A stretch of DNA of 63,558 nt, counting the filler, from Rozella allomycis CSF55 (Eukaryota), in the NCBI GenBank assembly GCA_000442015.1. It is 17 parts of 17 records of this genome, joined end to end, with 100 filler letters (N's around TTAATTAATTAA, not from the genome) between each part and the next. Parts side by side here need not be neighbours in the genome. Positions count along the whole stretch, not along the records: positions 29,720 to 38,004 come from KE560680.1; 16 more parts are not named here. One strand, 5' to 3'. Both the position numbers and the translations under genes were made by a program. The notes under the pieces are model-generated. The model was not told the DNA's origin. It made no database searches and worked only from the letters and a program-made list of their open reading frames with translations. Positions 17,825 to 47,049 of this stretch are shown here, piece by piece. Positions within the stretch are counted from its first letter, which is position 1, and each line of letters begins with the position of its first letter.

Positions 17825-18168
17825 AGAGATAATAAAATTGGCATCGGTAAATAAGATTTCAATATTTATTGCTTTTGTGAAACATTAAATCGGTATAATT
17901 CTCGGCAATTATATTTAATGTTCTTCTTGTNNNNNNNNNNNNNNNNNNNNNNNNNNNNNNNNNNNNNNNNNNNNTTAATTAATTAANNNNNNNNNNNNNN
18001 NNNNNNNNNNNNNNNNNNNNNNNNNNNNNNGCAGCAAGCAAGTAAGAAGAGAGTGAAAAGATGGTAAAGAAGATTGATTTCATTTTTGAATGAATATGCG
18101 TTTTCATGGATCTATATATCAGTCATTGACAGTGATTATATTTGCTTTAGTAAATTAGAACTATTTAT

Positions 18169-18823
18169 TTAACCGTTGATTGTACAATCCATTGGCATTG
18201 GCCGTTTAGTAAAGTCGGGCATATAGGTTTTTTCCTTTACTTCTCCCATCAAAGTATCTTTCATTCCGGCTATACCTATTTTGAATATCACTTACGCTCT
18301 AGTGGCTTTTCTTCAGCCTGTGGAAAATCAATAACAGCGCCAGTATCTAATGAGATCCTCACGCGTTTAACCTGCCCGCTTTCTGGATCTTGGATGCATT
18401 TGTTAATAGCTTCACATGCCTTCCCAGTTAAGGGGTCAACAAGAGCAATTTGGCGCGCATAATATGGCCAATTCAAATTTATATGTGAAATATGAACAGC
18501 TTTTTCGTCTTTTGGTTTTGGCAAAAGCCTTCTTTGCAAATTGAAGCCAGAAATAGTGACTTGATTGTATGTCCTCAAAATATCTGTAACAATTCCATGG
18601 CGGCCCTTGTTTTTTCCGTGAAGAATTTCAACCTATTTGTTAAATTGTCAAGTTTTACCTATATGATACAATAAAACATATTTACCACGTCGCCCTTTGC
18701 AAATAGCCATTCATTGTCTGGAATTTCTGGGCCAGCGCGAACTCTATGTCTTCTAACAAACCTATTGAATTGATATGTGAATGGCCTGATTTTGTATAAC
18801 TTTTTAGTTATGGTGGCCCCCAT
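18169..18823 (-). CDS. MRPL24: Mitochondrial ribosomal protein uL24m (MRPL24/Mrpl40)
   Basis: Spliced KOW motif W.FAKGDV|VEILHGKNKGRHGIV, then HISHI..IALVDP..G and RVRISLDTGAVI. Introns 18633-18685 (compound) and 18270-18295. Start codon uncertain. Confidence 0.85.
18633..18685 (-). other. Compound intron of two abutting mini-introns (27+26 nt)
   Basis: GTAAATATGTTTTATTGTATCATATAG|GTAAAACTTGACAATTTAACAAATAG; both must go to restore the KOW motif. Confidence 0.85.
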
Positions 18824-19117
18824 ATATGGAAAATGGAAATTTCGGCTGGCCTTGCAGCGGGACACATATTTTTTTGCGGGAAATATAATCTAATCGGTTC
18901 CTGCCATTTCAAAAATTTGAAGGTGGAGAGTTGGAGACTTGGAGTTGTTCATCGATGGGGAAGTTTCAGAGATTTCACCATACTATTGTCCTTTCAACCA
19001 TTGCCGTAATTTACTTGAAGTTATAACGAATAAAATAATCAAAATTGAATATTAAATAATTTTTAATGCGTGTCTTGCATGCTATTTAAAGTTTTCTTAA
19101 AAGTTGAAAGAAATTTC

Positions 19118-22100
19118 ATGAGCTTGACAATTTGGTGTAATATTGATTTTGAGGGTAAACTAGGCACGGGTAATGTAAAAGAAACAAATTCCTTTATTAT
19201 TGAAGAACTCAATAAAAAGATGCCGTTTAAAAATATGTCATGGAAGTCAACTTTAAGCACACTTTCTCTTGGCCACCGAAACTGGACAAATAATGAATCT
19301 CTTGACGTCCACTTTACAGAAGAGCGGACTTTAGCAAATTCTATTCCTGTTGACTCAACGTATCCTGTGTACTCACAAAGTCATCCAATATGCCATATTT
19401 ATGTTATCGACTGTGATGTAATAAAACTTGATTATTACGAGTAGGATGTAGACATATATAAAAATCAATTGAAGAATCAAATCAAGGGATGGGTTGGTAG
19501 AAAGAATGACCATGTGATTGTACACTTTTCGAGGACTGAAGCATCACGAAACAAGTTTAATTTGAGATTTGGGGTTTTGGATAAACTAAAGTCTGATTTT
19601 AACGATAAAAGAGACAGATGTGTGCAAATCAGACAATTGGAGTTGTTGGATAGTGAGATGTGGTCTGAAGTGATGAAGAGACTGAGTGAATTAATTTTGG
19701 CTTGTTTTGGTTTTTATATAATGAATATGGAAGATGAAGTGAAAAAGATTGAGGCGCAAAAAAGTCTTCCGGGGTGGAATTTCTGTTCGTATTTTTCAGT
19801 GAAAGAATCGATGGCGTTAAATTATATTTCAATGAAAATGTTTGATGAATCTTTAATTATTTATGAAGAGCTAGATGCAATGTTGCAGTATTATATTAAT
19901 GACAAGGAATTTTGGTTGAAGACGTTTATGAAAAATGATTTTAAAGAAGAGGAGGATTTTAGCAAAACAAGAAATGAAATTTATGAATCTTCAATTTCTA
20001 TTTTCGATTTTCTTTCTTACGTCTTTAAAAGAAAACTTGAATTGTTTTTGCAAATGAAGGATTACAAACTTGTTTTCCTTCGATCAATTGAGTTTTTTCA
20101 AAGAATATTTCAAATTGCAAAAGAGAAGCTTTCAGAAACTTTTGTTTATTCTTGGATTTATTCTCAATGTATGAAGATTCTTGATAAAACAATGAAATGT
20201 GTTCTGGTCAGAGAACAGGAATTTGCTAAATCAACTTTTCTGTTTTATTCTTTGAGAATTTTAGAATCGATTGGTTCTTTACTCGGCTATCTCCCAAAAG
20301 GGAAGAATTTGTTGTGTTGCCGTGAACCAGGGTCAGTCATCCTGATTAAGCTTTCAGAAGAAGTAATTGGGGAATTACGAAATAAATTGACAAACGACAA
20401 TAGTTCATTTGATTCTTTATATTTGGTAAATTTATCGTATTAAATTGAAAGGATTTAATTCAAATGATTGTCAAAAGTGCCAATTTATGCGGTAGACAAA
20501 GGTTGGAGAACTTGGCATTGAATAATTTATCCTATTTGCATGCGATTAGAGATAATCATAAAGAATCAATAAAAATTTATGATGAATTAAAGAATTACTA
20601 TTTGAAACAAGGTTGGTATTCTTTGGAAAGCGACATTTTAATAAAATTGGCTAGAAACTTGAAGAGTAATTCTGAATTTTCAAAGTAACGCTTTTATTGA
20701 TGAGGTAAAAGATACGCGAGCACTTGCATTTCTTTGATCAGTAAAACACAATATTTAATGAATGATGCGATTCATTATTTTACTAAAGAATTGATAGACA
20801 TTGCTCATTCAATTTCAAATGGTATTTTATTATATAAATTTTAAAAAGATGTTTATTCAGAATTTAAAGTTTTTCAAATCAAGAGTTTCAAAAAGGATTC
20901 ATTGGACACTTTTGATGAATTCCTTTATTTTGACATTTCCATTGTTAATCTTTTGCCTTTTGTAATAAAATATAAAATAAATTTAAAAGAATGTTCCATT
21001 TGATAGCATCGTCCTGGTTTTGCTCGGGACTGAAAATGAATTGATTTTTAAAAGTCAAGGCGGATTAGACCCTGGCGAAAACAATTTAACTTTAAAATGT
21101 CCAGACATTTCTCTAGTAGGAAATTACGTTTTGGAAAAAATAACACTTTCATTGGGAAAAATTCATTTCAGCTACAATTTTCTATTACATGGGTCTAAAG
21201 TGATTTTTCAGCGCACAATTCCAAAATGGTTTCTTAATGTTCAAGTCACTCTTCCTACTGAAATAAATTTGGATGATTCGCCTTCTTGCAGATGGATCAT
21301 CAGCCAGTTCAATGAACCTTTAAAAGAACTGACTTTCTCTATATTAAACGATGTTGACATTTTCCANACTTTCTATGTTGACATTTTCCAAAGCGAAATT
21401 ATTTCAAAATCAAACTCTATTGAAAGAAAATTAAGTCTGATTGATGGGAAAGTAGTTTTAGGTGATTTTGAAGCAGGATCACAAATCTACTTTGACACTT
21501 TTTACAATAAAGGTTTGCCGCCAATTTTAAATCAAGTAAATTTCATTAATAAATTTGAAAGGTGAAAGTGGATGTTTCTTTTATCAACAGCCATGGGGCT
21601 AAAACCACTACTATAAATTACTTTGATCTCGAACCATTCTATCCAATTAATTTAAACCTTTCATACTATTTTTCATCAAAGTCGTACGTCAATCTTCAAT
21701 TACTCATTCAAGATTGATGTTGGAATATCAAATAGAAAATATAAGCAACGATACATTGATAATTGAATCAACTGACGCTGAAACAGCAATAGATATTAAA
21801 ACTGATTATTTCAAAGATTCATTAGTAAACAATGTTAATTTCTCATAAAGATTATTCCTTCAAAAAGCTCTTCTACCCTTGGATTGCTCATTTCAAACGT
21901 GAATGACAAACCTTGTTCTGAATGGCTTCCAAACAACGTAAAGTTGAAATTTAAAGTTTCAAATATTAAAATTCAAATATCAAACGCTCTGGACGAAATT
22001 ATCAAACAATTTAGAAACAAGCCAGAATATCATTGGCTACGATTAAAGTTCAATGAAATATTAGCCACCAATTACCTCGAAGATTATTTTCTACATCACG

Positions 22101-22731
22101 GATGTCTCACCCTACCCACTATCAATTTGGAAGATGAAAAAATAACAATTTGGGAGTCAATCGTCAAAGTAAAACTCTACTTTCATCCGTATTAGAAAAT
22201 GGAGCAAGCTGCTCTTGATAAGAATGTCTCTTCTTTAATGACACTAAATGTTAATCTTCCTTCATGTCAGGTAAGAACTTTCCTCCGCATTAAGAGTCCC
22301 TCATTTCGTCTAAAATTGTACTGAAATCCAAAAACAGTGAGGTTTTCGTCGGATCACTGATAAAATTAAGTTACTCGTTTTCCCTATCAAGCTGCCTTGA
22401 TACAGAACTAGAATTTTCGGCAAAATTGGAAATCAATCGTAACCACTGGGTTGTGTGCGGATGCATCTCAAAGAATTTCAAGCTTACAAATAATCAATCC
22501 TTTGACTTAAATATATCAGTAATTCCGCTAAAGACAGGCTACCTGCCCCTACCAGGAGCAAATGTCGAGTGTTTGAATGATTCCACTTGCCAGACTGTAA
22601 TGACAACCAATGGTAAGCAAATTTATGTTACTGTGCCAAATACGAAACCATCCACATATTTTCTCGGATCCATTCTCAATGGTTCCAACATGATGAAATC
22701 GCCTTCTGTGTTTTCGATTGGTCAAATGTAA
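19118..22731 (+). CDS. TRAPPC10: TRAPP II subunit Trs130/TRAPPC10, about 10 tiny introns
   Basis: VLDKLKSDFN...RCVQI, LPGWNFCSYFSVKESMA, YEELDA and C-terminal W.VCG...IPLKTGYLPLP. Confidence 0.88.
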
Positions 22732-22784
22732 TAAATTAAAAAAATAAAACATTATCAAAAATTCTTTATTAAAATGCTATCATT

Positions 22785-23402
22785 TTAGTTGGAAGATTTG
22801 GAGCGCTTCTTGATCAAGTATCCAGCAATTCCAACAAGTGCAAGACCTCCTCCAACTGAAGCAGCGATGGCGCCAGTAGACATTCCCTCGCTTTTGGTTT
22901 CAGAGTCTTTTGTCTCATCAGATACTTCAGCAGCTTCTGCATTTTCTTCTTTAGGCTCGGCGACGACGTTTTCAGCTTCGGCTTGTGCTTCCTCTGCAAT
23001 TTGTTTTTCAGGTTCCGCTTGAGGTGCTTCAGGTTCTACTGGTGCGTCTTGTTCGGCTACGGGTTTATCACCTGCTACCTCCCCATCGTCTGAAGTCTTG
23101 TCAGTTGGTTGAGCCTTTTCATCTATCATATTTGCTTCAGTCTCTTTATTTTCTGGTTCTGCATTTGGTTCGTTAGTGGTAGCTGAAACCTCACTTTTTT
23201 TCTCGTTAGGCTTGCTACCTATGAAAGGAACCCATGAGGGGATCCAATTCCTCGATGTGCTCTTAGCTTCAGGTACAACAGGAGCAACAGATGGAGCAGG
23301 TGAAGTAGTGTTAATTTCTGGAGTTGTTTGAGTTTCAACTGGCATGGCAGATACAGAAACGGCAGTGACTGCGAGTATAGTGAAAACAGTTTTCAAGTTC
23401 AT
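22785..23402 (-). CDS. Type I membrane surface protein with acidic Ala/Glu/Pro-rich stalk
   Basis: Signal peptide, low-complexity ectodomain, GMSTGAIAASVGGGLALVGIAGYLI TM helix, short basic tail. Confidence 0.75.
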   Translation of the reverse strand: MNLKTVFTILAVTAVSVSAMPVETQTTPEINTTSPAPSVAPVVPEAKSTSRNWIPSWVPFIGSKPNEKKSEVSATTNEPNAEPENKETEANMIDEKAQPTDKTSDDGEVAGDKPVAEQDAPVEPEAPQAEPEKQIAEEAQAEAENVVAEPKEENAEAAEVSDETKDSETKSEGMSTGAIAASVGGGLALVGIAGYLIKKRSKSSN

Positions 23403-23551
23403 CTCTCTTTTTATGTGTGGCTGAGTGTTTTTTCAGTATTTATACTTTGAAATTTCCAAAATTTATTTTTAGAACTCTCTAGAACTATTTAAAGATATTT
23501 GATAATTTTAGCATTGTATAGATTTTGATGCATTCAAATTGCCATATAAAA

Positions 23552-24205
23552 CTAACCATTTAATTCCTCGTAATTTATTTCGTTTGTATAATCTAAACAG
23601 AATAGGGCACACACGACTAGAGTAGTGGCACAGAGAAGCGGTATTGGCCCAAAAAGCCAAGCAAGTGTGGGGAACGCAAAGTAATATCCTCGGTTACCGA
23701 TGCTGTGATAATTTGATGCCTTTTGAAATATTTTATACACATAATCTGGCGAGAGATCTTGAACAGAGATGAGCAAATTGACATGATTCAAGAACCTGAT
23801 AGCCTGAGAGTAAAAGAAGAATGCAAAGAAGAATAGAAAAATGAGGATAAATAGTTTGTAGAAGGCCCAATCTGGAGTCTCGTTTTGGCCATAGATGTAT
23901 GTGTTTAGCGGTGCCAGGCGCTCTGTTGACGTGGCGAGGGCGGCTATAGCGGATGCGATGATTATAGATGTCGAGGCATAGAAAGATGAGATCATGATCA
24001 TGTTTCGTAATGTTTGTACTCCAAGGATGTCTCTTTTTTGTGTGACTATTGAGGTTATCCATTTGTAGCGGATGGAGCGGTTGAGTCCTATGACTGTTCT
24101 CTGGGGATGATAGATGCAAGCATATAAAAGTGTAATGTGGTATATTATGAGAGCAATGTAGCAAGATGGAGCGATAATTAGGTCAAGATAGTCGGAGTTT
24201 GTCAT
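23552..24205 (-). CDS. DUF599 family membrane protein
   Basis: TVIGLN...R..WI...DILGVQTLRN.IM.SSF.AST and GNRGYYFAFP.LAWLFGP. Confidence 0.85.
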   Translation of the reverse strand: MTNSDYLDLIIAPSCYIALIIYHITLLYACIYHPQRTVIGLNRSIRYKWITSIVTQKRDILGVQTLRNMIMISSFYASTSIIIASAIAALATSTERLAPLNTYIYGQNETPDWAFYKLFILIFLFFFAFFFYSQAIRFLNHVNLLISVQDLSPDYVYKIFQKASNYHSIGNRGYYFAFPTLAWLFGPIPLLCATTLVVCALFCLDYTNEINYEELNG

Positions 24206-24632
24206 CGCACAATAATCAAAATTTTGGGATTTTGAAAATACTTGAAATAAAATAATTGACATTTTTTCAAACTTGATAAATTAAAATTGCTTGAGAACAT
24301 TTAATCCTCACAAAAACCCAACTTTGGGCAACCTGTAAATTTCATAATCTACTAATGAGGGTAAACAAGCAGAAAATAATAGTATCATTATTCCAAGGTA
24401 AAAATTTTCTCTAAAATCCACAGGTCGTTATTTTCCGCGCAATCCATCATCCAAGGTGTACTTCCAATGCAACTTTATGCGCCAATTGTTGTTAACGGAG
24501 CCAGTTGATCTAGTGTATGAGCCTGTGTGGGANNNNNNNNNNNNNNNNNNNNNNNNNNNNNNNNNNNNNNNNNNNNTTAATTAATTAANNNNNNNNNNNN
24601 NNNNNNNNNNNNNNNNNNNNNNNNNNNNNNNN

Positions 24633-25480
24633 TGCTTACGATTATTTGTGCAGTAATTGTTAACTTCCAAATTTACCCTTGTCTCATGCGTCAACCATTT
24701 TAAAAGAGCCTTCACAATTTTTGTGGACTATGGATGGAAAGTTCTAATCTCATGGACCGTGTGACACAATACATTGAAAACTTTAGTGAGAATAATGATG
24801 AATTTAGTGATTCTATGTGTCAGGCGGCTACCTCGTGCAAAGAAAAATTGGAAAACTACTATGATGTGACCAGTGATGGATGTACAGTTGCAACAGTACT
24901 TGATCCCCGTTTGAAATTGGAATATTATAAAGCCTTTGAAAACCAGGAAGGCCACACAAACTCTCTAGAAATTAAGCAAAAGGTTCAAAATATGTATGAG
25001 GCCAGAGGCCAAGTACGCGGCAACGCACGACTCCGCGGCTGCGCCTGCTACTAAAGCGACAGGCTTTGTCCAATCTATTTTCAAGAAGCGTAAAATTACT
25101 CCACAATCGGAACTGGACGAGTATCTTAACCAGCCCACCGTGGATGCAACCATTCAACCCCTCAATTGGTGGAAGTCAAATGAACTTATGTTTCCTACAT
25201 TATCTAAAATGGCGAAAGATTATCTTGCCATACCAGGTACATCAGCTTCGTCTGAACGTTTGTTTTCATCTGGCCGCCAGCTTATCACTGACTTTCGCTG
25301 TTCATTGAGCCCCGCTACTATTCAAGCATGCATGTGCCTTAAGGGATGGCTCAAAGCCGAAAAACATGAAGAAAAAAATTAAAAAAGATAATAAATATAC
25401 GAAATTTTACATATTAGGTATTTGATAACAATTTGCAAATAATTTGGACCTTTTGAAACTATTTGCAAATCAAATACAAA
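24633..25480 (+). mobile_element. hAT DNA transposon, 3' part; transposase frameshifted
   Basis: ATVLDPRLKL and hAT dimerisation domain ELDEYL..PLNWWK..FPTLSKMAKDYLAIPGTSASSERLFS. Subterminal ATTTGCAAAT palindromes at 25431 and 25461. Confidence 0.9.
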
Positions 25481-27551: not shown

Positions 27552-28880
27552 GGACACTTTATCAATTCAAATTCATGCCAATCATTCAACATTTTTTCAA
27601 TTTCAAAATTTATAGGTTTAGTTATCATGGAATGATTGCTACTTAAAATGTTTCCATCAATAGTTTCAATTTGATGCTTAATTGGTCTGACATTATAGGC
27701 TATATTATGTTGTCTAGCAAATTCAAGATCCATAAATGAATGAGATGCTCCAGAATCAATCAGTGCTTCGACTTTAAATTTATCGGTGGATAAAATAACA
27801 GTAAAATGCTCATTGTCTTCCAAATGATTTGATGAAGAAAGAAGATAATCAGAATTATGTTTTATATCACTACGAGAATTATTAGAGCAATTACGCGCAA
27901 TATGTCCACTTTGGCGACATTTAAAGCATCTACCCTCCTTCCTACAACGTTCACGCTCTTCCATGGTAAGTTTCGTCAACTTTCGAGTGGCATCTAAGAT
28001 CATTGGCGTTGTATCATCAGATATTGTCACTGTGTCGCGACACATTTCATCACGATGTTTTCGCTCATCAATCTTCATTATCAAATCATAAAATTCCGAA
28101 ATAGTCTCGAGTTCATCAAAATACTTCAAATGGGTCTTAACATCGTTATTGACAGCTTGATATACGAACGCTTTGATTGCCTCATCATTGAAACCAGACA
28201 TTGGTGCTAACCGCTGAAATTCTGCAATAGTTGCCGCCACAGAACGTTTGCCTTGCCTAATGTTCATGATTTCCCTCTCTGCGGTGATCTTGTTCTCCTT
28301 TAACCCAAATTGACGCTTTAGTTTGCTTTGAAATTCTTCAAAAGAACCACTCACTTCATTTGTAATCCAATAAGAATCTAACCATTTAGCAGCTGACCCA
28401 CGTAAGTATGAAGCCGCGAAAATTACTTTCAACCTATCGGACGTGAACTTTTCTTTTTGCGCTTCAAAAACAAAGTTGATCTGACGGATAAATGAAGGTA
28501 ACTTTTTGGAATCCCCAGTAAAAAAGTCTGGATCGGCCACTTTGATATTTCCCTTTCCCGAGTACCTTTGATCAAGCACGCCTGCTACTTGTTCTAATTG
28601 CTGAGATGACAACCGTGGTGCTGGTAAGTCCGTGCCTTCCGGGTTCTGTGTTTTCAAGTAATCTTGTAGTTCTGGTGAAATATTCATGGGAGATTAGTCT
28701 TGTTAAAGTATAAAGAAATAACTTAAGAAAAGACTTTTGTTAACTGAGTTAACAAGACTGAAGTCTTGTTTCCTCCACTTTATTTATAAGATAATACTTT
28801 AGCTTCCATCATCTAGAATCTCTGGAGTGATCTTCGGAAATCTCAAAGATACTTTCTTGGATCTCAAACAATTCTTTACA
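27552..28880 (-). mobile_element. Ty3/gypsy LTR retrotransposon, 5' part: LTR, gag, zinc knuckle, protease
   Basis: ORF from 28687: PDFFTGD..LRGSAAKW capsid, PMILD, CFKCRQSGHIARNC knuckle and ALIDSGAS protease in one frame. Confidence 0.92.
28701..28880 (-). repeat. Putative 180-bp 5' LTR
   Basis: Minus strand TGTAAAGA...ACTTTAACA termini, TATAAATA at 28788-28781, gag ATG 14 nt after the LTR end. The second LTR is not in the window. Confidence 0.65.
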
Positions 28881-29000: not shown

Positions 29001-29776
29001 CAAAAAAGGGTAATCTATTAAAGCTTGGGCTAGAAAACTAATCTAGAGCCAAAAAAGATTTTCTTTAAATCGCCAACCGGACGGGAAGTTTATAATTGTT
29101 GACAAATTTCTTCACACAAAACCACTGTTTTGTATCTTTATCATTTTTTGACATAAGTTGAAAAATTGTCAGGGCTTGCACCCATGTTTGAGGTTATTAT
29201 AACTGAAATTTTTTTTCTCCAAGGGTGTAATGTAAACCTTATCGAATCATCTGTATCATCTGCATCTGATAGAGTCTATCTCCAAAGCCTATGTTGACCA
29301 TATAAGAAGAGCTTCCTGGGAGCTTACCCAGGTTATTTATCATAAATAACNATTTTATACCTTCGTTTTAAATTATAGTATAAATAACCTAACAACGCGC
29401 AAATGTCTGAAAACACTCACGAATCAATGTTACGTGATATAAAAAGTAAGCAGGATGATAAAGATGTGACTACATCGATTTTAACTCAGACCAGAGACAA
29501 AGATGAGAAGAAAAAGTCATCGACAGAAGTATTATGTTAATACAAGGGTATTCGCTTACTGTTATAAAAGGCACCCATGTAATTTTTTTTTCTTCACTTC
29601 CTTTAAAATCTTTAGACTTNNNNNNNNNNNNNNNNNNNNNNNNNNNNNNNNNNNNNNNNNNNNTTAATTAATTAANNNNNNNNNNNNNNNNNNNNNNNNN
29701 NNNNNNNNNNNNNNNNNNNAAAAAAGTAACAATAATAACAAATAACTTTATTAATAATTATTGTGATGAAATAAAT

Positions 29777-32700
29777 TTATTCGTATTGGGATAAATCCAG
29801 TGTGAGGATGGCAGAACCATTAACTTCTTGATTACGATATACACCAACAAGAGAGTCGGCCTTTTCATATAATTGCCTCTTTAAAGAAATAACGATAAAC
29901 TGAGGTGATTTGTGATCTAATTTAATCTCATTAGAAAATCCTTACCATTTATGTCATTGTTCTCTCCATCTACTTCATTTTCTCCATTCCCTTCTCCAAC
30001 TTGTTCATCACTCACTCCCCTATTTCTTTGTTGTTTATTGTTTGATAGATTCCTTAGATATCTAGCCACTTTGGCAACATTAGAGTTGTCTAAAGCAGCG
30101 TCAACTTCATCTAGAACAAAAAACGGAGAAGGTTTAAAGTTTTGAATAGAAAACAAGAGAGCCAAAGCCGCGACTGTTTTCTCACCACCCGAGAGATCAT
30201 CAATGTCTCTGAATCTCTTTGTGGGAGGAGTTACATTGAATTTGACACCAGAGAGATAAGGTTCCTATTTGATGTGATGAGAGGAAAGATTACGTCTAAA
30301 TCTTGAAGTGACAGAGAAGCTGAACCACCTAGAGGAAAGTTTTGTGATTTTGTTAATTCCTTGTAAATGTGATCAATTGAATCTTGTAGCACTGTAAAGC
30401 AACTCATAAAAGCCTTAAACCTTGAGTTAAAAATAATTGAAGAGATTACCTAATTAAGACTTTAAATACTATTGATTACCTAGTTTAACCCCTATAATCA
30501 TTGATTACCTAGATTATTACTTTAAATACTATTGATTACCTAGTTTAACTCCTATAACCATTTGATTACCTAGTTTAACCCTCATAACCATTGATTACCT
30601 AGTTTAATCCCTATAACCATTTGATTACCTGGATTGTTGAATAATTGAAAATTCTTGTTTGATAGATTTAGCATTCTTTCTAGCCAATTCAAAAGAATCA
30701 TTTGATTTCTTGAATTGATTTTGAAATTCATTAAATTTGTTTAAAGCTTTTAAATTTGGTGATATTTTTTCTAAATCATTTTGTAGAGATTTTAATTTTT
30801 CTTGAAATTCAATTTCTTTAGTTTCAGTTGAATTAATTTTAGAATTGTTGTCAAGTTTAGAGAAATCTAAGATTGCATTTCCATTAATTAAAGATCCAGA
30901 TGTTATGGGAATTTTTATTTGTTGAGAAGCGCATTTAATCAAGACAGATTTCTTTTCTTCTACTAGTCTTTCTAATAGAGCTTCTCTTGATGTTTTGTTC
31001 TTTATACTTGTTTCATAGTTTGTTAATAATCTGTGAACTAGTTTTTTCTTCTTGTTGAATTCTTCTTGAATGTTTTCATATTCTTCTTGGAATTCATTCA
31101 ATTTATTCAAATTTTCATCCAAATTGATTTGTGAAATTTCCTTTTCTTTTTCAATTTTATTTAAATTTTTATTCTTCAATTCTAAATCATTTTCCAAATC
31201 ATTAATTGATTTCTTCAACTCTTCAAATCTTTTATAAAAATCATTCATCAAATTATTTTCAAACTTTAAATCTGACGAGACCTTTTTATAGGTAGGGTTA
31301 ATAATTTACCTATTATATAGGTAGGGATACTATTGTTACCTATAGTATAGATTGACTTTAACTGCTTACCTATCGTTAATCATACCTTCACTATGTTACC
31401 TATTGTTAACTTTTACCCCTTTTGCTTACCTTTGATTTTAATTGATTTAGTTCAAATAGTTTAATCTCTTTTTGCTTCACTTCTAGATCAATATAATCTC
31501 TAATATTTTCAATCTTCAATCTCTCACAAAAACTTTTAAATATTTCATCTTGTTTTAAAAACAAAGATTTCTGAATCTTTTTAAATTCATTTACAATTCT
31601 ATTCAATTCTTTATTTTTAAATTCTTCTTCATTCATCAATTCATTTATATTTTTATTCAACAAATTTAATTCATTTTCCAACAATTTAATCTTTCCTTCC
31701 AAATTGTTTATTTCTTGTTCAACATACACCAACTTTGATTGTAGATTAGCTATTTGATTATACATGGGTTCTAAATAACTAACCTTTTTCTTTTCTCTTG
31801 ATATTTCATTCAAATTGGCTATCAATTCATTTCTCTCATTTTTCATTTCTTGTATATTTTGTTCATCCCATGTAGATCCATCAAAGCCACTAGATCCACC
31901 AGAGATCAACCCAGATTTATGGATCACTACTCCATCCAACGTAATCGATTTCACTCCAAGTCTTTTATTATAATTCACATCCTTTGCTATCTCCACATCA
32001 TCACAAATAACTGAATTGCCACACGCATACTGCACTGCTACATGGAATTTACTCTCACATCTGATAACATCAATCGCCAATCTACAGCCATCAAGATTTC
32101 TCAAACTTTCATTAATTGGTTTCACATAAAGTGAGTCCAATGGCAGAAATGTAGCTTGGCCTATTCTCTGTTCCTTTAAATAGTTCAAACATTCAACTGC
32201 TGTTTTTTCTGAATCCACCAATATTGAATTCAAATGTTTTCCAAGAACAATCCCACAAGCTACTTGATATGTTTTATTTATTGGTTTAACTGTTTCCTTT
32301 AATCTTCCATAGACGCCTTTTACAAAGTTAGTGATTAATTACCTATTAAATGACAAGTACGCTCTTTACCTATTAAATGAAGTAGTACGCGCTTTACCTA
32401 TTACATGATAAATACTCTACTTACCTATCACATTATAAATAAGTACACTATTTACCTATTGTTACATTTCAAACCTTTTAATTACCTGAATAAATTCTCT
32501 TCATGTTGCTGATCGCTTCATTCATTTTACTCTCCTTCAAACTAGTTTTAATATTAATTTTAGCTTCACTCAAATTCTCCAAGACTAAATTCAATCTCTC
32601 TTGATACTGAATCTCTTGCTCATTCAACGCAACTTTAATCTTTTTATTTTTCTCAATCTCATTCTCCAATTTATTTTTTTCTTCCAATAGATCTATTCTA

Positions 32701-34123
32701 TTTTTAGAATATTTTTCTCTTCTTATTCTCAGATTTGAAATTTCAGAATTAATCTTCTCTCTTCTTTCTTTCTTTTCATCTATTCCAATAAACTTTATTT
32801 CTTGTTTAATCAAATCTATTTTCTTATTCAACTTTTCCAATTCTTGTCTCTCGTTAAAGTTCATTTCATTTTCTTGTTTATTCAATTCATTAAATTCTCT
32901 TCTCTCTTGTTCATTCATATTCACTTTATCTATCTTTATTTCTTCAATCTCTAATTCTATCCTCTTAATCTCTTCTTCCCTCTCTTTAATCTTTTTCATC
33001 TTTTCTTCCTCTTCAATCTCCATCGCCTCCCTCTTCATTTCCAAATCTCTCTTCTTTTCATTCAAATATCTAATCTGCTCCTTAATCTTATTCTTTTCTG
33101 GTCTCTTTTCTTCAATCCTCTTTTCCTCTTCCTTTATACTCTTCTCCAATATCAACTTTTCTTTAAATATTCTGTTTTGATCCTTCTTCTTTTCCTTCAT
33201 TCCAACCTCCTCCCTCTCGTAACTCTCTTTATTCTTCTCCACTTGCTCTCCATGATACTCAATCTCCTCCTTCAACGACTCTACATTCTTCTCTATGTGA
33301 TACAACCGCCACAACAAATATTTTATCGTAATCTCATCCCGCTCCCTCTCCAACTCTGCATACCTCTCCGCCTCTTCCTTCTGCTCCTGGTACTGCCGCA
33401 TCTCAACATTCATCCCCTTCCTCTTACTAAACGCAACTGTCGACTGCTCAGTCGCTCGCTCCATCTCCTCCTTCAATCTATCATACTCCTCCTTAAACTC
33501 AATCGACCTATAATCATCCCTCAACCCTCTTCTTACCCTGATATCTGCTCTATAAAGTTACTCAACTCTTTCGGATTCCTCTGCGCTATAGCCTCCACAT
33601 CCCCCTGGAACACCAAAAAGTTTCGCAACTTGACCAATATATTCTCCTTTTCCAACTCACCATTATACACCCCAGCTGAAACAACCTACGCTCTCTCAAT
33701 CACCTACTTACCTTGCCATCAATCCTATACTCACAATGCCCATTCAACTGAACCCTACAACTTTCAACAAACACCCTTACGATCGGCTAAACATCACACT
33801 CTCTCCCTCAAGCTCATACTCCATCTCAACAACAGCCTTGTGCGCATCCTTGCTCTTGTCGCCACACCGGTACACAAGCTCCTTCAACTGCTTCGACCGC
33901 AAATGCATCGCTTGCACCCCCAACACAAATGAAAGCGCATCCATTATATTCGATTTGCCTGTTTTCATCGCCAACGTATTTTACCTAGATATGATGATGA
34001 AATACATCCGCTACCTGATCCGTTTGGTCCTATAATACACGTAAAGTCGCTAAAGGGCCCGATCCGGTGTCGGCCGTTATAGGATTTGAAATTCTCTACA
34101 TACAAACTGTTCAAACGGCCCAT
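29777..34123 (-). CDS. SMC1: Cohesin subunit SMC1, 9 introns (4 compound)
   Basis: [29 protein letters not shown], hinge [41 protein letters not shown]. Introns 33959-34014, 33755-33780, 33686-33711, 33508-33536, 32317-32485, 31282-31429, 30421-30628, 30265-30293, 29917-29945. Confidence 0.96.
30421..30628 (-). other. SMC1 compound intron: 7 abutting mini-introns (30,29,30,31,29,30,29 nt)
   Basis: Each unit starts GTAATC and ends AG; six internal TAG|GTAATC junctions. Removal gives QQSR-FKAFM. Confidence 0.9.
31282..31429 (-). other. SMC1 compound intron: 5 abutting mini-introns (30,30,30,30,28 nt)
   Basis: Internal ATAG|GTAA junctions at exact 30-nt spacing. Removal gives [13 protein letters not shown]. 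Confidence 0.9.
32317..32485 (-). other. SMC1 compound intron: 6 abutting mini-introns (30,31,27,28,27,26 nt)
   Basis: Five internal ATAG|GTAA junctions. Removal gives hinge RIYSG-VYGRL. Confidence 0.9.
33959..34014 (-). other. SMC1 compound intron: 2 abutting mini-introns (30+26 nt) inside Walker A
   Basis: GTAGCGGATGTATTTCATCATCATATCTAG|GTAAAATACGTTGGCGATGAAAACAG; removal gives GPNGSGKSN. Confidence 0.88.
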
Positions 34124-34359
34124 TTTTAGGTTCACGAAAATTCAGAAATTAAATTTTATATACCTCGACAAAAAATATGGCCATGTATTTATTAATTAAC
34201 TGTGAGAGTTGTTAAGCGAAAGCGAGAAAAAACCTAAATATCAAATATCGAAACTTATTGTAACGTTAAACCTCGTGTTCTATATATACACATTCTGATC
34301 CCAAAATAGAATAAAACGTTCGGGAATCAGGAGGATCAAACAAAACACTCCTGTTTCAC

Positions 34360-35681
34360 ATGCTGCAAGTTCCCCTCCACCAGTTCATCGACCCGAATTT
34401 CCACCCCGATCCCTCCGAATGCATAATCGCAACCATCCNGCGATACTTTTAAGGAAAGCCAAAGAATCTACGTCGAATTTCCACCCCGATCCCTCCGAAT
34501 GCATAATCGCAACCATCCTGCCATGCAGCCCGCCCATGGAAATCAAGCGGGTGTACTGGTACTCTACGTGGTTCATCAGCTGCAACGACATTACTAAATA
34601 CGTCGCATTCTGCTACATCCAGCAAACAGGCAATTCAATTCACAACATGCACAAGTTCGACGAAGGCGTGTTCAGCGATTTGAGACAGTACAAGATTGGC
34701 GTGCATGCTGTCATGGAGGAAAACAGGTCGGAATTCTTGTCGTTTTTGCTAAAGACTGGGTGTGTGAAGACTCAGAAGAAGCAAAAGGTTTACATTTGGG
34801 ATAAGATTAATCTGGATTTGCTGGTGCAAGACGCTACTATGCGGGAGTTGAGGAGAGGCAGTGGGTCGTCGGCTAGTAATAGGAAACGGAAGTCTGTTGG
34901 GTCCATCATGCTGAATACAAACATGTCGCCCTATGGATATACAGAACAGTTTATTCTTCCTTTTGAACCGGCATTTAGTGAAACGACAGACGGGACAATG
35001 CCATTGACACCCATTACACCTCTAGGGACAATATACGAAGCCCCACAAATGGACCAACAGAACAGCGAGCCGCCAAGTATTGACATATCTCAACTATTTG
35101 CAATGGAAGGTCAATTCACTCCGTACGCATCACAAACTGCTCCACTTTCTTCTTTACCTCCATCTCTATTAACATCCACATCAGAGTTTTTTGATCAAGG
35201 TTTGCTCCTTCCGCCTCCATATTCTCCAAGCACGCTATACACCTTTGATGAATTTCCCGCAAGAAGACCGCAAAATCGTAGACATTCAACCACCTCTCTT
35301 CCAGACTGGTCAAAAGGATCAGGCGATCGACCATATAAATGCCTAGTGCCTGGCTGCTTTCGCGAATTCAAACGTATGGAGCACTTAAAACGCCACGGTA
35401 GAATACATACTGGGGAGAGGCCGTTTTCATGCAACTTTCCAGGCTGCAACAAGTACTTTTCGAGATCGGATAACTTGGCTCTGCATCAGAAAACTCATGA
35501 GAGAAAGGGTTTGGAGTTGATTGAGGAAACCAATTTGCACTTTAACAACAATGTAAATCTGCCAATGAGCAGCAAGGTCGATGTAACCTTTTTTGACTCT
35601 GCTACCGATCTTCCTTTACTTGATTCTCTAGAGATCAAAGATAAAGGCAGTTCTCCTATAATTAACGCGCCAATTTGGTAA
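34360..35681 (+). CDS. STE12: Ste12-like transcription factor (STE domain plus two C2H2 zinc fingers)
   Basis: [29 protein letters not shown] and [27 protein letters not shown]. The 5' end is blurred by the assembly overlap at n34439. Confidence 0.88.
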
Positions 35682-35814
35682 GCTTCCTGATTTGTAAATA
35701 AAAAATATTGGTATATAAGTATTTTTATATCATTAAAAGATTGTATCAAGTGATTTGGGATAAAAAGAGACCAGTTCAATAGAAATTGTAGCCCATAGGT
35801 ATAAAACGGGATTT

Positions 35815-35856
35815 ATCGGACGGGGAGTTTACGACCCGGACATCAGAAACGATTAT
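35815..35856 (+). repeat. Dispersed copy of the 40-bp repeat at 15875
   Basis: ATCGGACGGGGAGTTTACGACCCGGACATCAGAAACGATTAT, next to an assembly break (n35863). Confidence 0.85.
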
Positions 35857-36142
35857 TGGCATNACCGTTGTAATTCTCATAAGTAATTATATCTCCATCT
35901 TCATCCTTCGTATTTCTCAGTTTATGCAGAAGTTTTTGGTTTTTTGGTGCCAACCATCGTTCGAAGTTCTCTTGTAGACTCATTTGTTGACAGGGGTATT
36001 GTAATGTAAACCTTATCCCTTTGACACCCAACTTGGCTTGCGATGAGCTGTTAATATAGTGTAATTATTATTGCTAAATACACTCTTGATTTCACTATTC
36101 AACAAAGAATAAAGTTCCTCCAAATCCTGATCACTTGGTACA

Positions 36143-36535
36143 TCAAATGGAACATATTCTTTTGAAATGCAATTCAAAGGAAGACGAGATCAAAATCAAA
36201 AATGACTTGACATATTGCTCATTAGTTTTCACTTCACACATCATTGGATACAAGTAATTTTTTGATTGATACTCTTGGATTGTCCATTCTAACATTGGAT
36301 CACTCTTTCTATGTTTGTAGCTTGAAACAAAACGAATGACAATTGCCTTTGACTCTCTTTTTTTGCACGCGGTATCAAATATCGCCTCATAAATGCCTTT
36401 TGCGATATCAAGCGCTTCGGTAGTTAAATCGACAGTTTCATCATCAAAATAACTGCAACTGCTATCACTTGGGATTTCACACCCATTGTAATCGGAGTCG
36501 TAGCCTAACATGCGTATGTTTGTTCTTCTATCCAA
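36143..36535 (-). pseudogene. Copy 1 of a duplicated ORF segment shared with the D5-like fragment
   Basis: About 36151-36457 is near-identical to about 37110-37416 (KKRESKAIVIRFV.SYKHRKSDPMLEWTIQEYQSKNY.YPMMCEV). Confidence 0.6.
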
Positions 36536-36579
36536 AATTTGTAAGTTTCAGGATCGAATTAAAAATAGTTTATTTATGC

Positions 36580-36845
36580 AAATACAATTCCTCTTTTCAT
36601 TCAAAGCACGATGTCTAGTAAGCCTGATTACGTCTTGAAGCATATTTTTAATGTGGTACTATTTTATTATTTACTATTTACTTACTTCAAGGCCTACATA
36701 CATCGCATTGACGCAATCATCGCTAACACCTCCAGGTACATCGTTATCGACAGCCAAAAATGCCAATTTTCGTTTCAGCTCTTCTTTCGTTCCCATATTA
36801 TTTTCAAATGACATAAAATGGAGATTATCTGGCTTTAGGATATCT
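36580..36845 (-). pseudogene. TADA1: Fragment of SAGA subunit Ada1/TADA1 histone-fold region, intron-containing
   Basis: Spliced translation SFENNMGTKEELKRKLAFLAVDNDVPGGVSDDCVNAMYVGLE|YHIKNMLQDVIRLTR with a 27-nt intron at 36659-36685. Not in the ORF track. Confidence 0.65.
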
Positions 36846-36968
36846 TTCAAAATAAAATAATCTACATACTCGATTTAGTTGACATTGGTGATACCGAAGA
36901 TTCGCTAAAGGAATGATGCTACCTAAACCAATACGGTGATTCTGATAAAACGGGAGTTTGCTGTGATT

Positions 36969-37417
36969 CTAGTACTTTCGAACTACAATAGAAGAAGGAA
37001 CATTCTTGAATGCGGTGAATTGTAAGGATTCGATATTCAATACGCCATTGGCAAAACCAATAAAGGATTTATCGGTTTGTAGAAATTTGAACTTGGAAGA
37101 TGCATCATGGACATGCTCTTTTGAAATGCAATTCAACGGCAAGACCAGATCAAAGTTAAAAAATGCCTTGAAATATTGCTCATTATTATACACTTCACAC
37201 ATCATTGGATAAAAGTAATTTTTTGATTGATATTCTTGGATTGTCCATTCTAGCATTGGATCACTCTTTCTATGTTTGTAGCTTGGAACAAAACGAATGA
37301 CAATTGCCTTTGACTCTCTTTTTTTTGCACGCGGTATCAAATATCGCCTCATAAATGCCTTTTGCGATATCAAGCGCTTCGGTAGTAATCGACAGTTTCA
37401 TCATCAAAATAACTGCN
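36969..37417 (-). pseudogene. D5-like primase/helicase N-terminal fragment (virus/Polinton-type), frameshifted
   Basis: FKFLQTDKSFIGFANGVLNIESLQFTAF resembles the D5_N F-x-N-G-V-x-(D/N) motif. Indels relative to copy 1. Confidence 0.5.
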
Positions 37418-38104
37418 CAGATTTTTCGAATGTCAAGTTAGAATAAGGCAGGATATATCTTCTTAGTAATTCATGAATTACTTAGAAGATATATCCATTT
37501 GTAAACTTCTCCAGTGCCTTGAACTCTCACATAGCCATTCTCACAATCCTCCATGTGTTCAACTAGTACAACAAAAGGTTTTCTTTTGGTTTCTGTGTTG
37601 CTTCTTTTTAGAACAATAGATTCAAAGACGTTAAGAATCCTCTTTTCTCTTGCTTTGTCTATTCTTCCTCCACTGTGAGAGAAGCAACTGTAACTACTGT
37701 GCCTTGCTTATTATTAACATAGATACAGATGTGATCNGATCTTCAATTGATTCGTAATTTCTTTTCTTAGCAATAATCTTTCTGGCAGCCTCTGCGGCCT
37801 TGGCACCTTTCAAAAGATTCTTGAAATGAGTGATTGAGGTGTTGTTAACATTGATCAAGGGAGAAGCAGCGGGGTNAATCTTCAATTGATTCATATTTTC
37901 TTTTCTTAGCAATAATCTCTCTGGCAGCCTTTGCAGCGTTGGCACCTTTCAAAAGATTCTTCAGATGAGTGATTGAGGTGTTGTTAACATTGATCAAGGG
38001 AGAANNNNNNNNNNNNNNNNNNNNNNNNNNNNNNNNNNNNNNNNNNNNTTAATTAATTAANNNNNNNNNNNNNNNNNNNNNNNNNNNNNNNNNNNNNNNN
38101 NNNN

Positions 38105-41308: not shown

Positions 41309-41743
41309 TTAGCGACTCACAATATCTGTTCCCTTGGGGATTGCATTAACATGAAATGTGGGTTGAACAGTGGATACAACTTGAAGCATTTTCTGTATAA
41401 CCTTTTCTCGGTTTTGATCAAATTGCAATCTTATTTCTTGTAATTTTTGTTGAATTTGGTTTTCTACTGCCAGAACGGCCTCATCAGTAGATCCAACGTA
41501 CTGGCTTATTTTTAAATATAAAACATTACATTTGATTCAAATGAATTAAATTCTTGTTCTTTTTGGGCCTTTAAAGCTTCTATTTCTTTTTGAGCTTCAG
41601 TTTTTGCATCTTTAAGCTTTTGAACGCGGTCTATTTAATAGAGTTTAATGGAGCTTACATTGACGACTTTTTTGAACAATTTTAGATGCTTCCTTTTCTG
41701 CGTCAAGAAGGATTTGAATTCCCTGTGAGTTTTGAGCAGCCAT
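41309..41743 (-). CDS. VMA10: V-ATPase subunit G (missed by ORF track), 2 introns
   Basis: MAAQNSQGIQILLDAEKEASKIVQKSRQY-RVQKLKDAKTEAQKEIE; introns 41631-41658 and 41501-41529. Confidence 0.93.
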
Positions 41744-41802
41744 ACCCTGGAAAAATGAGAATTGGTAAACAATTAAATTGAAATTAAAATGGTTTATTAT
41801 TT

Positions 41803-43275
41803 CTAATGAGTATCGCATACCGTTAGTATATCTGATATAGTTGTAGGTGCGTGCTCTTGAATTAAAGAAAGGGCGACGTTCATTGTCATTTTCTTCAATG
41901 GGTCAAAAACAGCTACCAATTCGACTTTGCAGTCATTTAGCGGATAATCGGCTTGCATTTTAAAATTATATATTCGTTTAGATTGCAAATTGATGATTTC
42001 AACAAATTCCAGATTGGGGAAATCTGGTTTGGATTGATACTGAGAAGCAATGTCTGAATATTCCTTTTCTCTTTCCACAATGACTTTTAATCTATTCATT
42101 ATAGAATGTATAAGATAGTTTAGATTATAACCGATCTGTTTACAAGTAACGATCAAATCGTCAAATGAATAATTGCATCCAACAACCTTTTATGACTTGT
42201 AACATTCAATTTACTTTCACGCTAATCACCACGTGTCTTTTAAGTTTGATTTCTATTAGAAAACTCTTTTGAGAATATTCAAATGTGAATTTTGCAATTT
42301 CGCCATTAAAAAACTCCACAGACAATCCAAGACTTCTTTTAATGTGTTCTAAATCTTGTTCATATCTATTAAAGAGATTTCTTATCATTACACAACTTTA
42401 TTATCTAGATCATTTCTGTCGTAGGAATCAATTTCATTTTTTAATCTATTTTCTTCTCGCATTAAAAATTCAACTTCTCTTTGAAGTTTAGAAACTTGAT
42501 CTTCCTCTGACGCAAGCTTGCTTTTCAATAGAGTGGACTGTGCTTGCATGTAATCAATCGACTCGGTTTGATTGTTTATCTCGACAAGCTATTCATTCAA
42601 AATACTTCTGTTTCTTACTTGATTATCTAAAAGCTCTTGAAGTTCTTTTTCATTCATTTCTTCTTCATCCAAATTTAATCCTTTCAACCTCTCAATGTCC
42701 TGTTGAATGTTCGCAAATTCATTCAATTCGTTCTCCAAAAGCTTTTTGTTTTCTTCAAAGATCGGTCGAACTTTTTAAAGGATAAATAAAATTTTACTGT
42801 GAAATAATTCCTCTGCCAAGTTTGTTATTTCGCGCTTGTAATCTTCAATGTCCTTTTTCAATTCCTTCAATGATTGCTTTCCTTTAGTCATATTTTCCAC
42901 TATAATTAATAAAACACAAATTTACAAAGCATTTCATGATCTTTTTCATCAATGTCATCAACATTCGCATACAGCTTTTTAATAAATCGTTCTTTTGTAT
43001 CCAACTCTACATAGTTAAATTTCAACTTGGCAAAACGAGACTTAAATAAACAAAATTTAAAACAATCACCTTTATATAATGAAGCTCTGAAGCTGCCATG
43101 GCAAAAGGTGTCCCATTCTTTGTTTTGTAATTTTCCTCAGAGTCATCTTCATTTTCTGGAGCAAGAGTCATAGTGTCCATATAGAATTTTAGATTCTTGG
43201 CTTCTTCCAGTTTTCAATAATCCATAAAACATATTATATTTACTTTGATGTCTCCTCAATGTCCTCACCCAACAT
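41803..43275 (-). CDS. Kinetochore protein Sos7/Kre28/Zwint-like (coiled coil plus probable RWD C-terminus)
   Basis: Spliced HYIK|SRFAKLKFNYVELDTKERFIKKL...KQSLKELK resembles the Sos7 signature. Start is either 43275 (needs a GT-TG intron) or 43180. Confidence 0.7.
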
Positions 43276-45534: not shown

Positions 45535-47049
45535 TGTGAAAATGAAGGAATTCACTGGGGCAATCTTTTTCCATAGCTTCCAGCAAACTGTGAAACCATT
45601 CAAATGCCTAATCAATGTTTAAAAATACAATTAATTACATTTTTGTCCCTGCATATCCACACAAAATGCAATGTTTGAAGCTTGGTATTGTCTTTTATAT
45701 TTCTGGTTTTCCTATACCAAATGTGTTTTAACACAGAAGCGAATGGTGTCACTCCAATACCTGCGCCTACGATCAAAGCTGAATCATATTGAAAAACGTC
45801 TTCTGTGGGTGTTCCATAGGGTCCGTCAACGTATATTTTCGGTAAGTACCATCCATTGTATGTCTTGACTTGGTCTTTCTTCTTGAAGCAGCCCAGTCTA
45901 TTAGCAAGTGCACTGGTCCAATCTCCGCAAACCCGTATATGAACTGAATGATGATCGTCTTCGGGGCATGATGAAAGTGTAAACGGATGCCATTGATACT
46001 TTGATATTTCAGGGATACAGATAAACACATATTGTCCAGGTTTATATGAAAATGAGGGCTTTTGAAATTGCAATTCAATTACTTTGCTTGGATGTTCAAT
46101 TATTTTAGAAATGTATGTGAGCCTACGTGCCCTGACTTCTCTTAATCCCCTTTCGATCAAAAACAAAATAAATCCTGCAAGTGCATATTTCCAGGTAAAG
46201 TAACCTTTACAAACTCGCTCTTCTGTTCTTACAAAACATCCAATTCCGTGCAGGAACACCAATATTGACCAAACAATTGCCAAATGATGTGTATAGTAGA
46301 AAATCTCAAACTTTTTTCTTCTGATTTGGAACATGGCACCAGTAAACATTAAAAGCTGGATGATCNACCAATTCCGTGCAGGAACACCAATATCGACCAA
46401 ACAATTGCCAAATGGTGTGTATAGTAAAAAATCTCAAACTTTTTTCTTCTGATTTGGAACATGGCACCAGTAAACATTAAAAGCTGGATGATCAATAGTA
46501 ATAATCCAGTAACGCCTGCTGGATGTTGAAAGAGTATGTAATAAGGAGAAAACCAGCCAAGATTCTGCAATGTACGTAGATTCAACATATGACCACATGT
46601 ATGAACTACAGAAAAGAAGCTGATCATGTAACCGACTTGGCGATGGAAGAACAAGTTGCTGTCGACTGGCACGATTTTGTTGATGAACGAAGACCTAACG
46701 TGAGAAAGCAAATTACGGCATATGGGGAAGAATATCATTATCGTACCGACATGTAAATTGTTTNGCCGACTTGGCGATGGAAGAATAAATTGCTGTCGAC
46801 TGGCACTATTTTGTTGATGAACGAAGACCTAACGTGAGAAAGCAAAATGCGGCATATGGGGAAGAATATCATTATCGTACCGACATGTAAATTGTTTGCA
46901 CTACCACGACTTATCCATACAGTCCACCCAAGTGGGTTGTTCAGTCTATTCAGTTCCGTGTCGTTCTTCTGGTTGAAAAAGCCTTGCATAAATATCAATA
47001 CATTGAACGCAATCCAAAGAATCCAAAATATGACTGTAGAGAGCTGCAT
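45535..47049 (-). CDS. NADPH oxidase catalytic subunit (gp91phox/NoxA-B type), 3' truncated
   Basis: Heme histidines FFHRQVG..VVHT and YYTHHL..LHG; WHPFTLSS, DGPYG, VGAGIGVTPF. Broken by overlap artefacts at n46366 and n46765. Confidence 0.9.

Follow-up and report, generated by a model that had tools for sequence, protein, structure and literature searches.

Several described systems come close to the element treated here: a set of arrays of abutting, putative mini-introns in the SMC1 (cohesin) gene of Rozella allomycis CSF55, read from a stretch of 63,558 nt of joined genomic pieces (the window). Rozella allomycis is a relative of the fungi that parasitizes water moulds and stands close to the microsporidia. 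Its arrays are, on balance, probably intron minisatellites—tandem repeats whose monomer would be an entire intron.

Intronic minisatellites, or variable number tandem repeats (VNTRs), are tandem repeats of a 10–60-nt unit. The Rozella arrays share with them the tandem units, a higher-order period, and differences between haplotypes, whereas the Rozella monomer lies in exact register with the splice signals, each repeat reading as a complete intron. Stwintrons of filamentous fungi are spliceosomal twin introns, one nested in a splice signal of the other, with a fixed order of removal. Here, too, more than one splicing reaction would serve a single intervening sequence, but the Rozella units abut and any order of removal would work. 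Introns are also reportedly gained by tandem genomic duplication of an exon segment that contains AGGT (the Rogers model). As in that model, a short tandem duplication would create a GT..AG pair and leave the mRNA unchanged; unlike in it, units 1–6 of the largest Rozella array would duplicate an existing intron and not an exon.

The closest mechanistic counterpart is recursive splicing at ratchet points—zero-nucleotide exons—which has been described for Drosophila Ubx and about 200 other sites (bioRxiv 10.1101/006163; PMC5126111). There, a 3′ splice site stands directly against a 5′ splice site, as it does at AG/GTA in the arrays, so that removal of the upstream segment regenerates a 5′ splice site and introns can leave in several steps without a trace in the mRNA. 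The known cases are very long (kilobases) and have few ratchet points, whereas the arrays span 53–208 nt, each segment is a full-sized intron of 26–31 nt, the junctions would stem from intron duplication, and the stepwise splicing is what we infer. Introner-like elements of fungi (PMC3609843) are likewise introns that multiply as sequence families; unlike them, the Rozella copies are local, tandem, and 26–31 nt long, with none found elsewhere in the window. Ultra-short introns of about 25 nt are described for Paramecium and Nyctotherus (PMC5014332, PMC2633312), and ultra-short introns also occur in microsporidia and myxozoans (PMC13644364). The narrow range of intron lengths under ~31 nt is common to these genomes and to Rozella, whereas back-to-back arrays are not mentioned in the parts of these papers drawn on. 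For R. allomycis itself, the section of a report that treats the S23 gene gives two putative introns of ~30 nt without conserved motifs (PMC6349667), in agreement with the intron size in the window.

Our literature search brought up no account of ultra-short introns lined up back to back, be it in Rozella or in other organisms, with the Rozella genome paper and its supplements lying outside that search.

Putative mini-intron arrays in SMC1

The largest array interrupts SMC1 at 30421–30628, where the first-pass annotation had proposed a seven-unit intron; both its coordinates and its unit count proved exact. Read on the minus strand from 30628 to 30421, the 208 nt parse into seven abutting GTA..AG units, every one of which starts with GTAATC and ends with TAG or AAG:

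30421–30628, minus strand: array 1, seven abutting mini-intron units, 208 nt, codon phase 2
30599–30628, minus strand: array 1 unit 1, 30 nt, subfamily a
30570–30598, minus strand: array 1 unit 2, 29 nt, subfamily a
30540–30569, minus strand: array 1 unit 3, 30 nt, subfamily a
30509–30539, minus strand: array 1 unit 4, 31 nt, subfamily b
30480–30508, minus strand: array 1 unit 5, 29 nt, subfamily a
30450–30479, minus strand: array 1 unit 6, 30 nt, subfamily b
30421–30449, minus strand: array 1 unit 7, 29 nt, interior at random-level match to the other units

The exon upstream of array 1 ends in ..TCC AG and the exon downstream begins with G TTT AAG. Excising 30421–30628 joins the two in frame and matches the annotated SMC1 protein P0001 (Rozella allomycis CSF55).

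Within the array, interior identities—computed after trimming every unit by 4 nt at its start and 3 nt at its end, with shuffled interiors as controls—divide the units into two close subfamilies and one outlier. Units 1, 2, 3, and 5 (subfamily a) share 86–91% of their interiors and units 4 and 6 (subfamily b) share 88%, against 58–64% between the subfamilies. Unit 7 had been called more diverged, and it is: its interior matches the others at 48–52%, which is the shuffled level (mean 47%, 99th percentile 62.5%). The two consensus strings that the first-pass annotation had drawn up hold generally, the exception being unit 2, which has GAGGG where.GG.. was expected. The units follow one another in the order a-a-a-b-a-b-c, and Tandem Repeats Finder reports a period of 59 nt (3.2 copies, 85% matches) beside the period of 29 nt (5.4 copies, 78% matches). 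Unit order and 59-nt period together point to a two-unit higher-order trace, as had been suspected. Tandem duplication of whole units is borne out as well, with six of the seven units in two close subfamilies, a-a-a-b-a-b, and a two-unit step; likewise, the view of the monomer as an intron agrees with a complete GT..AG unit of the normal intron size for this window. The RNA of array 1 folds with a minimum free energy of −37.1 kcal/mol against −28.0 ± 3.4 kcal/mol in shuffles (z = −2.69; 1 of 200 as low), a difference that carries no inference because the repeated units pair with each other.

Array 1 does not stand alone. SMC1 holds further arrays of six, five, and two units, and a two-unit array is found in a second gene:

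32317–32485, minus strand: array 2, six abutting units of 30, 31, 27, 28, 27, and 26 nt, codon phase 2
31282–31429, minus strand: array 3, five abutting units of 30, 30, 30, 30, and 28 nt, codon phase 0
33959–34014, minus strand: two-unit array of SMC1, 30 + 26 nt, inside the Walker A codons (GPNGSG/KSN)
18633–18685, minus strand: two-unit array of the second gene, 27 + 26 nt; ribosomal protein L24/L26 (KOW) family

Excision of array 2, of array 3, and of 33959–34014 each reproduces the P0001 junctions. In the second gene, which lies on the piece at 18031–24532 (6502 nt) and is also described as mitochondrial L24, the annotated protein P0121 (ribosomal L24/L26 family; 100% identical to a Rozella allomycis record) reads ..AKGDVVEILHGKNKG.. 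across the array, and excision reproduces P0121. Via these P0001 and P0121 junctions, restoration of the reading frame holds for each array as a whole. A leftover unit brings an immediate in-frame stop in arrays 1 and 2 (phase 2: ..G/G TAA), and array 3 has an in-frame stop within each leftover unit. All internal junctions—17 of 17 across the five arrays—read AG/GTA.

Chains of this kind are not expected by chance. In 100 dinucleotide-preserving shuffles of the window, GTA..AG units of 24–34 nt formed three-unit chains at a rate of 0.01 per shuffle and none that were longer, whereas the real window has chains of 5, 6, and 7. Two-unit chains are different: chance would give 3.5 of them in a window, against 4 seen, so that they are not evidence when taken alone, and two-unit arrays were counted only where protein models back them (n = 2). 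The two-unit chains at 33333–33393 (minus strand), 8655–8704 (minus strand), and 31292–31345 (plus strand) have no open frames and were dropped; a three-unit chain at 33959–34038 turned out to be the real two-unit array plus 24 nt of exon.

SMC1 is the largest gene of the piece at 29720–38004 (8285 nt) and runs on its minus strand. Its assignment as the host gene, made already in the first-pass annotation, is confirmed by the match to P0001 and by the Pfam matches SMC_hinge and SMC_N; the 295-residue hinge exon (31430–32314) is 98% identical to P0001, a 1187-aa 'RecF/RecN/SMC domain-containing protein [Rozella allomycis CSF55]'. Four of the nine intron sites of SMC1 are arrays, against 1 of 26 sites elsewhere in the window (Fisher p = 0.01), and clearing the gene would probably take the removal of 25 units, 20 of them in arrays. 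The coding region and the remaining sites are as follows:

29777–34123, minus strand: SMC1 (cohesin) coding region, ATG at 34123–34121, stop at 29779–29777
33755–33780, minus strand: single intron, 26 nt
33686–33711, minus strand: single intron, 26 nt
33508–33536, minus strand: single intron, 29 nt (..EQISG/SIEF..)
30265–30293, minus strand: single intron, 29 nt (..LQDLD/EPYLSG..)
29917–29945, minus strand: probable single intron, 29 nt, on our interpretation, in place of the 74 nt taken out by the public model

Two introns of the public model behind P0001 seem doubtful. One is an in-frame 18-nt 'intron' at 31577–31594 (minus strand), which removes VNEFKK; the other is the 74-nt GTTGGA..AG intron at 29917–29990 (minus strand), where a 29-nt GTAAGG..TTAG intron (29917–29945) also keeps the frame. 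Head to head with SMC1, at 34440–35678 on the plus strand, lies a gene for an STE-like transcription factor with C2H2 zinc fingers. A protein search found no SMC1 between 98% identity (the gene itself) and 41% identity. Among metagenome contigs searched with the SMC1 protein, 287 pattern matches yielded one confirmed locus, an SMC at 27% identity (L001), which is unusable for a comparison of intron sites because it is too distant. Rfam gave no match at E up to 1 within 29720–34300.

Divergence of units and differences between haplotypes

The graded similarity seen within array 1 recurs in the other large arrays. In array 2, the interiors of units 4 and 5 are 81% identical, those of units 3 and 5 are 70% identical, and those of units 2 and 3 are 67% identical; in array 3, units 4 and 5 reach 78% and the remaining pairs stay near the random level. 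Mean interior identity is 60% within arrays and 49% between arrays. Neighboring units with interior identities of 78–91%, against 47% in shuffles, support a recent, local tandem duplication of whole units in the arrays.

Other units have lost all such likeness. Interiors at the random level belong to unit 7 of array 1, units 1 and 6 of array 2, and units 1–3 of array 3; these randomized units still keep GTAA..AG and the unit length. This, our main argument, suggests that every unit is retained as a functional intron, because the inner signals of one long intron would not survive a randomization of the interiors. The arrays appear to persist and to be maintained, and the description as a 'young' minisatellite, which the first-pass annotation had used, applies to units 1–6 of array 1 and not to the many units that are at the random level and yet have kept their splice ends. 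In terms of similarity, the Tandem Repeats Finder periods and identities of up to 91% are those of a minisatellite; unit 7 and several units of arrays 2 and 3 fall outside that description.

Four public DNA contig sets allowed a comparison of haplotypes. Along SMC1 (29777–34141), runs X1 and X2 contain a second allele whose depth is about half of the local value; two alleles thus occur at roughly equal depth, and the DNA comes from heterozygous material (diploid nuclei or a mixture of nuclei). In array 3, the second allele of both runs has a go-back joint from 31431 to 31422; together with the 21 letters in between, this joint lengthens the 5′ end by 31 nt. On the minus strand, these extra 31 nt share their first 8 nt with unit 1 (GTAAGC..) and end in TAG—as read from the joint table, one more in-register unit. 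A second joint in array 3, found in X2 only, leads from 31312 to 31290 with 7 letters between and adds 30 nt near units 4 and 5, which by the joint table we take for an additional copy of the unit-5 type. In array 2, the two alleles have equal unit counts and are set apart by 8 substitutions and 3 small indels, all of which spare the GT and AG ends. For array 1, the joint of the alternative allele runs from 30457 to 30591 and skips 133 nt; it would fit a loss of units 2–5 (119 nt) with 14 unaligned letters. Run X6 follows the reference path past 30457. At 29900–29950 this run has the alternative letters only, and it has three letters of its own at 30306–30312.

Among the substitution rows listed (40 of 63), X1 and X2 are both heterozygous at 10 sites of the arrays (581 nt), at 2 sites of the single introns (139 nt), and at 6 sites of the exons (3627 nt). 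The arrays evolve like introns, and array 3 differs in unit number between haplotypes. A difference in copy number between haplotypes, which had been put forward as a check on the duplication of introns, is partly borne out: in array 3, both runs gain the in-register 31 nt and X2 gains another 30 nt, as in a minisatellite, and array 1 differs structurally.

Growth, removal, and rival readings

The best explanation of these features, and one we hold to be rather more probable than its competitors taken together, is that the arrays are intron minisatellites that grow by the duplication of whole introns and would be cleared stepwise through zero-length exons. Their origin would lie in an in-register tandem duplication with the period of an intron, by which the duplicated intron would be joined to the first by AG/GTA, i.e., by a zero-length exon. 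In-register duplication is favored because both intron ends bear a short microhomology of the AG/GT type (CCAG/GTAA and CAAG/GTTT in array 1; AAAG/GTAA and AAAG/GTCT in array 3). Once two units exist, slippage or unequal exchange could add or remove whole units in the manner of a minisatellite—a growth and loss by whole units that is supported by the haplotype data. Out-of-register events would result in junk in the mRNA, a frameshift, or an over-long intron, and would hence be lost. For removal, the spliceosome would recognize and excise each unit as an ordinary mini-intron. Since every junction is AG/GTA, any order of excision would leave a valid shorter array and the same final mRNA. Such stepwise clearing would amount to a multi-step recursive splicing, and unit-wise splicing is the likely mechanism.

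The founder of array 1 might have been derived from an exon. Read along the minus strand, unit 7 closes with 21 nt (30421–30441) that resemble the end of the upstream exon (30629–30649), with 13 matches at the 20 positions outside the AG and an exact run of 10 nt; 1190 noncognate pairs have a mean of 5.9 matches (SD 2.1) and a longest run of 8. Unit 7 keeps this 10-nt copy of the upstream exon at the matching offset, which is how an intron just formed under the Rogers model should look in its 3′ portion, whereas its 5′ part lacks such exon likeness, with only 4 of 20 matches to the downstream exon. The tail of unit 7 may be what is left of a founding mini-intron that arose when ~29 nt of exon were duplicated in tandem at an AG/GT site, an idea that we keep as a lead only because the 5′ part of the unit is unlike the downstream exon. 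As a general rule, an origin from exon copies is rejected: over 35 intron sites, the match to the cognate exon has a mean of 5.7 of 20, against 5.9 of 20 for noncognate exons, and with the other 34 sites unremarkable, only array 1 stands out.

A wider reading, which we put forward tentatively and rate as somewhat short of probable, is that the spliceosome of R. allomycis has a hard upper limit near 31 nt, that longer interruptions are serially spliced concatemers, and that the founder came from an exon duplication. As parts of this reading, intervening sequence may come only in quanta of one complete mini-intron, concatemers may win or lose whole introns between haplotypes, the number of introns at a site could vary freely while the mRNA stays the same, and one mutational process may both create and multiply mini-introns.

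The competitor that has to be taken most seriously is one ordinary 208-nt intron with a passenger minisatellite, removed in a single splicing event between its outermost GT and AG, with the internal pairs unused. The public model yields the right protein by removing the whole stretch, however the boundaries are drawn; units 1–6 are too young for their intact internal sites to require selection; and the same public model has an intron of 74 nt. A single long intron accounts poorly for arrays 2 and 3 and for unit 7, whose dissimilar units are all GTAA..AG and 26–31 nt long, and for the extra 31 nt of array 3, which read as a whole in-register unit. The exact tiling of 148–208 nt was, moreover, not produced by chance. 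In a scan of the window for pairs of open reading frames (ORFs), no well-supported interruption longer than 31 nt was found that cannot be tiled; the well-supported single introns measure 24–31 nt, the longer interruptions are all exactly tileable, and tiled solutions are confined to the three large arrays of SMC1, the L24 site, and one chance match in antisense. We consider a single 208-nt intron unlikely, at a level that still calls for attention.

Lower in rank is a repeated insertion of mobile intron-like units (introners, reverse splicing) beside an existing splice junction, which we judge improbable. It would find support in the first units of arrays 3 and 2 (31396–31431 and 32452–32487), which, ~1 kb apart, are 81% identical over 36 nt without a gap; their interiors are 70% identical, above the 99th percentile of the shuffles and the highest value of any cross-array pair. 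This likeness could reflect copying between sites, or chance, and one such pair among 143 is only marginal. The extra unit of array 3 is, by eye, not a copy of the unit it adjoins, which also speaks for insertion. Tandem events are favored by the closest relatives, which are mostly neighbors in their own array (the 60% within against 49% between), and by the order a-a-a-b-a-b with its 59-nt period, which is their signature; moreover, a search with a unit of array 1 gave no further copy within 3 mismatches in the 63.5-kb window. Least probable by far is an assembly artifact, i.e., a stutter of a single 29-nt intron caused by the assembler or by gap closing. The draft does contain artifact-like tandem duplicates of 91–210 nt around single N positions elsewhere in the window, whereas the arrays are without any N, many substitutions and small indels separate their units, and all five arrays restore the reading frame exactly. 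Independent public DNA contigs of two studies also match 30520–30654 without difference and reach array 1 from the other side up to 30457 and 30488, its middle (30489–30519) being not covered among the contig pieces listed.

Several points weigh against the intron-minisatellite reading. The excision of units is something we infer from reading frames, homology, and public gene models. With six young units in array 1, intact splice ends tell little there, and the argument for maintenance rests on unit 7 of array 1 and on arrays 2 and 3. In favor of the reading, the array units look like single introns of the window: all 22 units and all 30 picked single introns are 26–31 nt long, with GTAA at the start of 21/22 and 27/30 and T at position −3 in 18/22 and 17/30, respectively. 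The comparison was not blind, as we picked the single introns ourselves, taking in each case the shortest GTA..AG stretch that connects two open frames of 50 codons or more, which leans to short lengths. Some of these 30 were checked against protein models or Pfam continuity. The units start with GTA and end with AG in 22/22 cases, in keeping with U2-type GT-AG spliceosomal introns, and base composition is alike in the two sets, both being C-poor (C 7% against 10%). No branch-site-like motif is clearly enriched in the units or the single introns of the window: the motif TRAY occurs in 15/22 array units, where shuffles average 10.5 and reach 17 at most, and 18/30 single introns have it. The 74-nt intron of the public SMC1 model means that longer introns may be possible in this genome. 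As to the haplotypes, the joint in array 1 gives no unit count for the second haplotype, X1 or X2 may be source data of the assembly and would then be no independent proof of the reference structure, and the absence of allelic differences at a GT or AG of the arrays (0/13, ~1.8 expected) is not significant. Finally, all of this comes from ~62 kb of genome.

The window itself strings together 18 contigs, with N44-TTAATTAATTAA-N44 linkers between them and a single gap of 257 N, so that genes on the two sides of a linker are not genomic neighbors. Two of its other genes were surveyed by eye: the TRAPPC10 gene (19067–22800, plus strand) has about eleven single introns of 24–29 nt and the V-ATPase G gene (41312–41902, minus strand) has two of 28 and 29 nt, in both cases with no array. 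The N-centered tandem duplicates (91–210 nt, 93–96% matches) lie at 37739–38004, 46240–46494, 46632–46899, 47203–47620, and 52542–52721 and look like artifacts of gap closing or haplotype collapse; one set of them interrupts a ferric reductase gene. Remains of mobile elements are present within 27554–28693, 49048–50796, and 62802–63250 on the minus strand and within 24704–25379 on the plus strand. By type, they comprise Ty3-type gag (zinc knuckle, aspartic protease), copia-type reverse transcriptase (RVT_2), and retroviral SH3-like pieces. A further mobile remnant, on a contig richer in GC, is a hAT transposase divided between two frames.

What the arrays would mean

If the arrays are spliced unit by unit, introns in Rozella multiply by plain tandem duplication, with young copies, old copies, and differences between haplotypes side by side in one gene. 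For SMC1, the 25 splicing reactions, 20 of them in arrays, may lower the yield of mRNA, a cost that could be under selection. Gene finders that call such arrays single long introns would misstate both the number and the length of introns.

The arrays would also serve as a natural experiment on how long an intron can become and still be spliced, in a genome of ultra-short introns near the microsporidia. If the length limit is real, the lengths of interruptions should fall in multiples of ~28 nt. And if stepwise clearing holds true, recursive splicing through zero-length exons would extend from the giant introns of animals to the smallest introns known.

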